Positions 25,529 to 27,435 of a DNA stretch of 64,000 nt are shown here, piece by piece. The number at the start of each line of letters is the position of its first letter. Positions within the stretch are counted from its first letter, which is position 1. Source of the DNA: Escherichia coli (GTDB lineage Bacteria > Pseudomonadota > Gammaproteobacteria > Enterobacterales > Enterobacteriaceae); the NCBI RefSeq assembly GCF_048403405.1, contig NZ_CP183129.1. The stretch is one strand, 5' to 3'. A model generated the notes under the pieces. The model searched no databases. It was given only the letters and a program-made list of their open reading frames with translations, and was not told the origin of the DNA. The translations under genes were made by a program, and so were the position numbers.

Positions 25529-25792
25529 TCAGGCGCGGATTTGTTGTGATGTGGTTGTGCTCTGGCAGATGGCAACGTGTGCGACGTCCACCAGTTTATT
25601 TAACTGACTAAACAGTAAGTCGACCGACCGTGGGCTGGCAACGGTCAATTCGATATTTATATTTTGTGCATCGCTGGCGGCGGCCATATTCATTGAACAG
25701 ACGTGGAAACCACGATGACGCACCACGCGTAAAACACGTTCTAAGGTTTCCGGATTGAAGCGAGCCGATACATTGACCTGATGTTGCATCAT
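25529..25792 (-). CDS. ilvM: acetolactate synthase II small subunit IlvM
   Basis: 87-aa [42 protein letters not shown]...; start overlaps ilvG stop (ATGATGA). Confidence 0.95.
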
Positions 25793-27435
25793 GATAATTT
25801 CTCCAACATTTCTGAATTACTGGCACCTGGCGGCACCAGCGGCCAGACGTTCTCAAGTTCGTCGATTGAGACATGAAGCAGGTATGGCCCATCACTGTTC
25901 AGCATGGTGTCGAGTGCCGCTTCAACCTGGTCTTTACGGGTGATGTGTTGGCCAGGGATGCCGAAGGCGCTGGCTAACATGAGGAAATCGGGGTTATCAG
26001 TAAGGGTTGTTTCGCTGTATCGTTCCTGGAAAAACAGTTGCTGCCATTGTCGAACCATCCCTAACCGTTGGTTATCGAGTAAGACGATTTTCAACGGTAA
26101 CTGCTTGCGTTTTACGGTGCCCAGCTCTTGCACATTCATCATGAAAGAGCCGTCACCGGAGATACAGACGACGGTATCGTTCGGTCGCGCGACTTGTGCG
26201 CCAACCGCCGCCGGTAAACCAAAACCCATGGTGCCTAATCCGCTGGAGGTGATGAAGTTTTCCGGGCGAGTGTGGACGATGTGCTGGGCAGCCCACATCT
26301 GGTGCTGCCCCACATCTGTGGTCACGATGCAATCCGCAGGTTTACGATCCGACAGTTGTTTTAACAACAACGGCGCGTAGATAGCGTCACCAGGATGGTC
26401 GTAACGCCAGGCATGTTCATCACGCAGTTGCGCGCAGTGTTGCTGCCAGTCATCGATATTTAACGGCTGCAGTAATGCTGGTAACAGAGCATTTAAATCA
26501 CCCTGTAATGCCACATGTGCCTGACGCAGCTTGTTCATTTCTGCCGGATCGATATCCATATGGATAACGCTGGCGTGTGGTGCGAAGGTGTTCAGTTTGC
26601 CGGTCACCCGGTCATCAAAACGTGCGCCCACGGCGATCAGTAGATCGCACTCCTGCACTGCGAAGTTCGCCGCTTTGGTGCCGTGCATCCCCAGCATGCC
26701 CAGATAGTACGGATAATCTGCTTCTACTGCGCCCAGCCCTTTCAACGTACAGGTGGCAGGCATTTTTGTGGCAGCGAGAAATTCACGCAAAGCCGAAACT
26801 GCCTGCGCCATGCCCACGCCACCGCCAACGTACAGCATCGGTTTTTGCGCTTTTGCCAGCATCTGACGCGCTTGCTCGACTTCGGCATGTGGGAAAGTCA
26901 CTTCGTTTTCAACAGTGGTGAACCACGGTTCCAGATCGCCGCTGGCTAACTGGATATCTTTTGGAATATCGACCAAAACCGGACCAGGACGACCTGAGCT
27001 GGCAACGTCGAATGCTTCAGCCATGATGCGCGGCAACTCTTCCAGCGACTGCACCAGAAAGCTGTGCTTGGTACAGGCTAATGACAATCCCAGTACATCC
27101 ACTTCCTGAAATGCGTCAGTGCCGATAAACGGTGCGGATACCTGACCGGTGATAGCAACAACGGGGATGGAATCTAACAGCGCGTCCGCAAGCCCGGTTA
27201 TCAGGTTGGTTGCACCTGGACCAGACGTGGCGATACATACGCCAGTTTTGCCGGTAGCACGGGCATAACCGATAGCCGCCATTGCTGCACCTTGCTCGTG
27301 TCGGCACAGCAAGTGTTCCACGCCACCGTCATACAATGCATCGTAAACCGGCATAATTGCGCCACCCGGATAACCGAAAACGGTGTTCACACCCTGTGCC
27401 CGCAACGCATGTACCACCCACTGTGCGCCATTCAT
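25789..27435 (-). CDS. ilvG: acetolactate synthase II large subunit IlvG (intact reading frame)
   Basis: Uninterrupted 548-aa [66 protein letters not shown]... (ThDP enzyme); ATG at 27433-27435. Confidence 0.95.

Follow-up and report, generated by a model that had tools for sequence, protein, structure and literature searches.

An uninterrupted ilvG reading frame in an Escherichia coli chromosome segment of non-K-12 origin

The ilvG gene of Escherichia coli K-12 has reportedly been known to carry a frameshift since the work of Lawther et al. in 1981 (cited in PMC8605374 and bioRxiv 10.1101/2025.10.31.685768). The lesion abolishes acetohydroxy-acid synthase II (AHAS II), and the isozymes AHAS I and AHAS III are inhibited by valine (PMC7066862). 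K-12 is valine-sensitive because the frameshift removes the sole isozyme that valine does not inhibit (PMC7066862; PMC3032704; bioRxiv 10.1101/2025.10.31.685768). The ilvG locus examined here lies in a 64,000-nucleotide stretch of E. coli DNA (hereafter, the window), and the question that it raises is whether its reading frame is intact and, if so, what this says about the source strain and its AHAS II. A first-pass annotation had proposed that the frame is open, that the DNA comes from a non-K-12 lineage, and that this lineage should express functional AHAS II and be valine-resistant. We consider it about 95% probable that the window carries the ordinary wild-type ilvG of a natural, non-K-12 lineage near E. 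coli MS 69-1, encoding a full-length AHAS II subunit from which valine resistance would be expected.

In the ORF listing, ilvG appears as a single frame of 548 codons at positions 25789..27435 on the minus strand, running from ATG to TGA with no internal stop codons. The 548-amino-acid frame proposed by the first-pass annotation is therefore borne out at its exact coordinates, to which the strand, absent from that annotation, can now be added. The encoded protein scores 1073 bits with NF006524, the NCBIfam equivalog for the acetolactate synthase 2 catalytic subunit, whose cut-off is 738, and the alignment spans residues 1-547 of 548, which is the full length of the protein. An open frame of 548 codons combined with a full-length equivalog match lies far beyond what chance would produce. 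Three Pfam domains of thiamine diphosphate (ThDP)-dependent enzymes are also recognized, all far above their gathering scores. These are TPP_enzyme_N, M and C, corresponding to an N-terminal Pyr domain (PF02776, residues 1-115), a central domain (PF00205, residues 186-321) and a C-terminal PP domain (PF02775, residues 374-522). On the basis of the equivalog score, the Pfam domains and the position in the operon, the gene is assigned as ilvG, which encodes the catalytic, or large, subunit of AHAS II (acetolactate synthase II).

Residues E47, F109, M250, R276, V375, D428, M460 and W464 are all present in IlvG at the expected positions, and the GDG...N motif for ThDP and Mg is found at residues 427-455. 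From AHAS II mutagenesis work, we take E47 to be the catalytic glutamate, and F109, M250, R276, V375, M460 and W464 to be substrate-specificity residues. We likewise assume from the AHAS II mutagenesis literature that D428 and the GDG...N motif are functionally important. Among solved structures, the nearest by sequence is the large subunit of E. coli AHAS I, IlvB (PDB 6LPI), which is matched over residues 2-544 with E = 1e-162 and belongs to the same ThDP/FAD-dependent AHAS fold family. Among the PDB sequence matches to IlvG, none was deposited as E. coli AHAS II, and none is a near-identical chain. The enzyme encoded by ilvBN is a paralogous isozyme that, unlike AHAS II, is inhibited by valine (PMC7066862).

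At the nucleotide level, the gene is 100% identical over 1647 bp to RefSeq genes annotated as WP_001012630.1, which is an ordinary coding sequence in the non-K-12 strains MS 69-1 and ST2747. This allele, found in MS 69-1, ST2747 and 7/2, also shares its operon context with the window, and no differences were observed.

For comparison with K-12, we used positions 3949500-3954000 of MG1655, in which the orthologous locus has the same neighbours and ilvG is the pseudogene b4488, with a length of 1645 bp versus 1647 bp in the window. A global alignment of the two genes, which had been suggested alongside the first-pass annotation, reveals a single 2-bp gap in K-12 in addition to 54 substitutions, with 96.7% identity over the aligned bases. 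The gap falls at gene positions 977-978, equivalent to window positions 26459-26458, and the two bases absent from K-12 (26458..26459, minus strand) read AT on the coding strand. At this site the window carries CCG TTA AAT ATC GAT GAC TGG (P L N I D D W), whereas K-12 carries CCG TTA AAT CAA TGA (P L N Q stop). Downstream of the lesion, the K-12 sequence picks up IlvG again in the +1 frame ('INDWQQHC...'). Without the 2 bp at 977-978, the K-12 gene thus terminates with TGA at codon 328 and would yield a truncated IlvG, whereas the presence of AT at 26458-26459 keeps the frame in the window open beyond this codon. The K-12 frameshift is absent from the window, and neither of the observations that had been named as counting against an intact, non-K-12 gene, namely an internal frameshift or stop and a sequence identical to that of K-12, was made. 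The K-12 lesion has elsewhere been described as 'two separate base pair insertions' (PMC3032704). This wording is contradicted by the alignment, which shows a single site where K-12 is missing 2 bp of the intact gene.

An open frame could also be found in a K-12 derivative whose ilvG had been restored secondarily, either in a valine-resistant ilvG+ revertant or by engineered repair. Revertants of this kind are common in the laboratory, and evolved MG1655 lines have regained the frame by losing single bases at the premature TGA (PMC8605374). However, the frame in the window is open by virtue of two bases that K-12 lacks, and not through a compensating 1-bp deletion of the type seen in those lines. 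Moreover, the 40-mer that spans the K-12 junction does not occur in ilvG of the window, and the whole 64-kb window is not K-12-like, being 99.98-99.99% identical to MS 69-1. This identity, together with the 54 substitutions in ilvG, excludes a K-12 revertant or an engineered repair, and we rejected both as having a practically negligible probability.

The same two lines of evidence bear out the claim of a non-K-12 source. MS 69-1 (NZ_CP146675.1) is a human colon isolate from the USA, and its identity with the window amounts to 99.987% over positions 1-30939, 99.93% over 31639-41211, and 99.983% over 40393-64000. The one structural difference between the two is an IS200 insertion of approximately 700 bp that lies away from ilvG. 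This IS200 copy occupies positions ~30940-31638, where it is flanked by hdfR and tRNA-Trp at the distal end of an rRNA operon; MS 69-1, although 99.98-99.99% identical in the remainder, has no copy at this site. The element carries a TnpA ORF at 31037-31495 on the minus strand, whose transposase matches Pfam Y1_Tnp, and Rfam recognizes STnc490 in the 5' region of the element (31505-31628). The insertion point is an A-run immediately before a hairpin. A 99% identical copy is present in ST2747 at another site, between wecA and rho.

An error in sequencing or assembly, for instance a miscalled indel, could likewise leave the frame open. The lesion site is not a homopolymer (AAATATCGATG), and the gene is not confined to this assembly. 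When the 1647-bp ilvG sequence was used as a query, matches were obtained in 5,425 of 5,426 complete E. coli genomes, with at least 99% identity in 105 of the 5,425. All 30 of the genomes listed, which were independently assembled, carry a sequence that is 100% identical. Since the same ilvG sequence recurs in many independent genomes, an artefact was rejected and has a vanishingly small probability. These counts also establish that the ilvG allele in the window is a minority allele.

To classify ilvG status by proxy, three junction-specific 40-42-mers centred on the lesion were matched against the same 5,426 complete genomes. The probes have no common 28-mer across the lesion, so their match sets should be disjoint. 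The K-12 junction 40-mer was found in 340 genomes, the in-frame 42-mer of the window type in 1,236, and a K-12-like 42-mer that includes the two missing bases in 3,496. An in-frame junction is therefore present in at least 4,732 genomes (87%) and the K-12 deletion in 6.3%, while 354 genomes carry other local variants at the junction that fall outside both classes. Among the 340 genomes with the K-12 junction, all 60 matches listed look like K-12-type laboratory strains or their derivatives; they include MG1655, DH1, BW25113, JM83, XL1-Blue, O16:H48 isolates, transconjugants and other records of ~4.5-4.9 Mb. Because the K-12 junction occurs in just 340 of the 5,426 genomes, intact ilvG is, as judged from these junction sequences, the norm for E. 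coli. Outside K-12, loss of ilvG is expected to be rare. An intact gene has also been reported for strains W, B and Crooks (PMC3032704).

We also considered whether the frame might be open but the enzyme inactive or poorly expressed, owing to residue changes or upstream substitutions, such that the strain would nevertheless be valine-sensitive. An in silico K-12 IlvG of 548 amino acids, obtained by restoring the two bases, differs from IlvG of the window at 8 residues (positions 146, 214, 322, 328, 342, 370, 387 and 494), and these differences offer some room for a loss of activity. However, none of the 8 coincides with any of the functional positions that were checked, and the catalytic and cofactor residues are thus untouched. 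Read from the list of alignment positions, 49 of the 54 substitutions fall at third-codon positions, and only 8 of the 54 alter an amino acid, a pattern that argues against an inactive enzyme, as does the margin by which the equivalog score exceeds its cut-off. In addition, identical ilvG DNA is present in many independent isolates of clinical, animal and environmental origin, as would be expected for a working gene under purifying selection.

Compared with K-12, the region from yifB to ilvG contains no indels, one substitution at 27501, and 13 substitutions at 27725-27944 that cluster upstream of the ilvL leader. Some of these 13 may lie in or near the promoter, and they are a point in favour of reduced expression. 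A consensus promoter scan of 27400-28000 returned weak promoter-like matches only, no more than in shuffled sequence. Taking the residue changes and the upstream substitutions together, we regard an inactive or poorly expressed enzyme as very unlikely, and retain the reading of an ordinary wild-type ilvG.

The elements between this upstream region and ilvG have the order known for the ilvLXGMEDA operon, with ilvL followed by a terminator hairpin and T8, ilvX, and then ilvG-M-E-D-A. The leader peptide gene ilvL (27575..27673, minus strand) is identical in nucleotide sequence to that of K-12 and encodes the 32-amino-acid peptide MTALLRVISLVVISVVVIIIPPCGAALGRGKA; its codons for isoleucine, valine and leucine are abundant. 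The attenuator terminator (27519..27551, minus strand) is likewise identical to that of K-12 and consists, on the coding strand, of the G+C-rich hairpin CCCCCGCACC-GAAA-GGTCCGGGGG followed by T8. A simple terminator scan of 27400-28000 missed this hairpin on the minus strand, and the attenuator was instead called by direct reading of the sequence. Directly upstream of ilvG lies ilvX (27438..27488, minus strand), an ORF for a 16-amino-acid peptide that is annotated as ilvX in K-12, ST2747 and MS 69-1.

The leader region is matched by Rfam RF02744 at 27455-27744 on the minus strand with a score of 158.8 bits, and this match encloses ilvL. RF02744, named 'Soft rot Enterobacteriaceae Rev 39 5'UTR', is the sole Rfam name that matches the ilv leader. 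Because the region is recognized solely under this entry, it appears that this family and the ilvL attenuator leader are one and the same.

Downstream, ilvM (25529..25792, minus strand) encodes the AHAS II small subunit of 87 amino acids. The protein is identical to IlvM of K-12. Its score of 133.9 bits with NF008362, the NCBIfam equivalog for the acetolactate synthase 2 small subunit, exceeds the cut-off of 68, and Pfam recognizes an ACT domain (ACT_5). The ilvG/ilvM junction reads TCATGATGCAA on the coding strand, where a shared 4-nt ATGA supplies both the ATG of ilvM and the TGA of ilvG, and a second ATG comes next. The overlap described in the first-pass annotation is thus real, but the string ATGATGA, by which it was represented there, does not occur at the junction. 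The same 4-nt overlap is found in MG1655. The remaining genes are also intact on the minus strand: ilvE (24580..25509), for a branched-chain amino-acid aminotransferase of 309 amino acids that is identical to K-12 IlvE and annotated in MS 69-1; ilvD (22665..24515), for a dihydroxy-acid dehydratase of 616 amino acids; and ilvA (21118..22662), for the biosynthetic threonine deaminase, the last two being supported by their ORFs and by annotation mapped from MS 69-1.

A comparison with ST2747 bears on the history of the region. No SNPs separate the window from this strain across positions 20001-30000, a 10-kb tract that extends from ilvY to yifB and includes the whole ilvGMEDA operon, whereas 17-30 SNPs per kb are observed across 14001-20000; the flanks of the tract differ by approximately 2-3%. 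The change from SNP-rich to SNP-free sequence suggests a recombination boundary near ilvC/ilvY. It is conceivable, although in our estimation distinctly unlikely, that the tract from ilvY to yifB was imported by recombination and that the 8 residue changes (for example S146, S214 and P494) alter the kinetics or the inhibitor sensitivity of AHAS II.

Other features of the window were recorded in passing. A 1.9-kb stretch at 3685-5628 is common to the window and MS 69-1 and absent from ST2747, in which wecC and rffC almost adjoin; in MS 69-1 this stretch holds part of the enterobacterial common antigen cluster, namely rffG and rffH/rfbA. Between rep and ppiC, a 149-amino-acid ORF for a PemK/MazF-like toxin (17678-18127, plus strand; Pfam PF02452) is present, and an adjoining antitoxin is not annotated. 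With the 801 bp at 17500-18300 as the query, at least 80% of the query was matched in 3,983 of 5,426 genomes. The K-12 counterpart at the rep-ppiC site is, we assume, the pseudogene yifN. The replication origin oriC lies at ~52700-53070, between mioC and mnmG, with three DnaA-box matches (52716, 52790 and 52896) and 19 GATC sites in 500 bp.

We propose that the ilvG allele in the window encodes a full-length, 548-amino-acid, ThDP-dependent catalytic subunit of AHAS II, which would be transcribed as part of the ilvLXGMEDA operon under the control of a leader-peptide attenuator that senses isoleucine, valine and leucine. The ATGA overlap would couple translation of ilvG to that of the small-subunit gene ilvM. 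Because AHAS II is not feedback-inhibited by valine, a strain carrying this allele would be expected to continue isoleucine synthesis in the presence of excess valine, and so to be valine-resistant. We infer the expression and enzyme activity of IlvG as well as the valine phenotype. Since ilvG, ilvM, the leader and the downstream genes are all intact, the first-pass annotation was well grounded in predicting a functional AHAS II and valine resistance, and we regard this prediction as a sound inference that is backed by the literature on other strains.

That ilvG is intact outside K-12 is textbook knowledge, and the present finding adds no new biology in this respect. The intact gene is useful mainly as a lineage marker, indicating that the window is not from K-12, and as a check on annotation. 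It also predicts normal, non-polar expression of ilvGMEDA; in K-12, polarity on ilvEDA has been reported. Deletion of ilvG in the uropathogenic strain CFT073 impairs growth in human urine, and once its ilvG frame is repaired, MG1655 grows in urine as well as wild-type CFT073 does (bioRxiv 10.1101/2025.10.31.685768). An intact ilvG, such as that in the window, would predict growth when valine is in excess over isoleucine, a capacity that the same preprint ties to uropathogenic E. coli in human urine.
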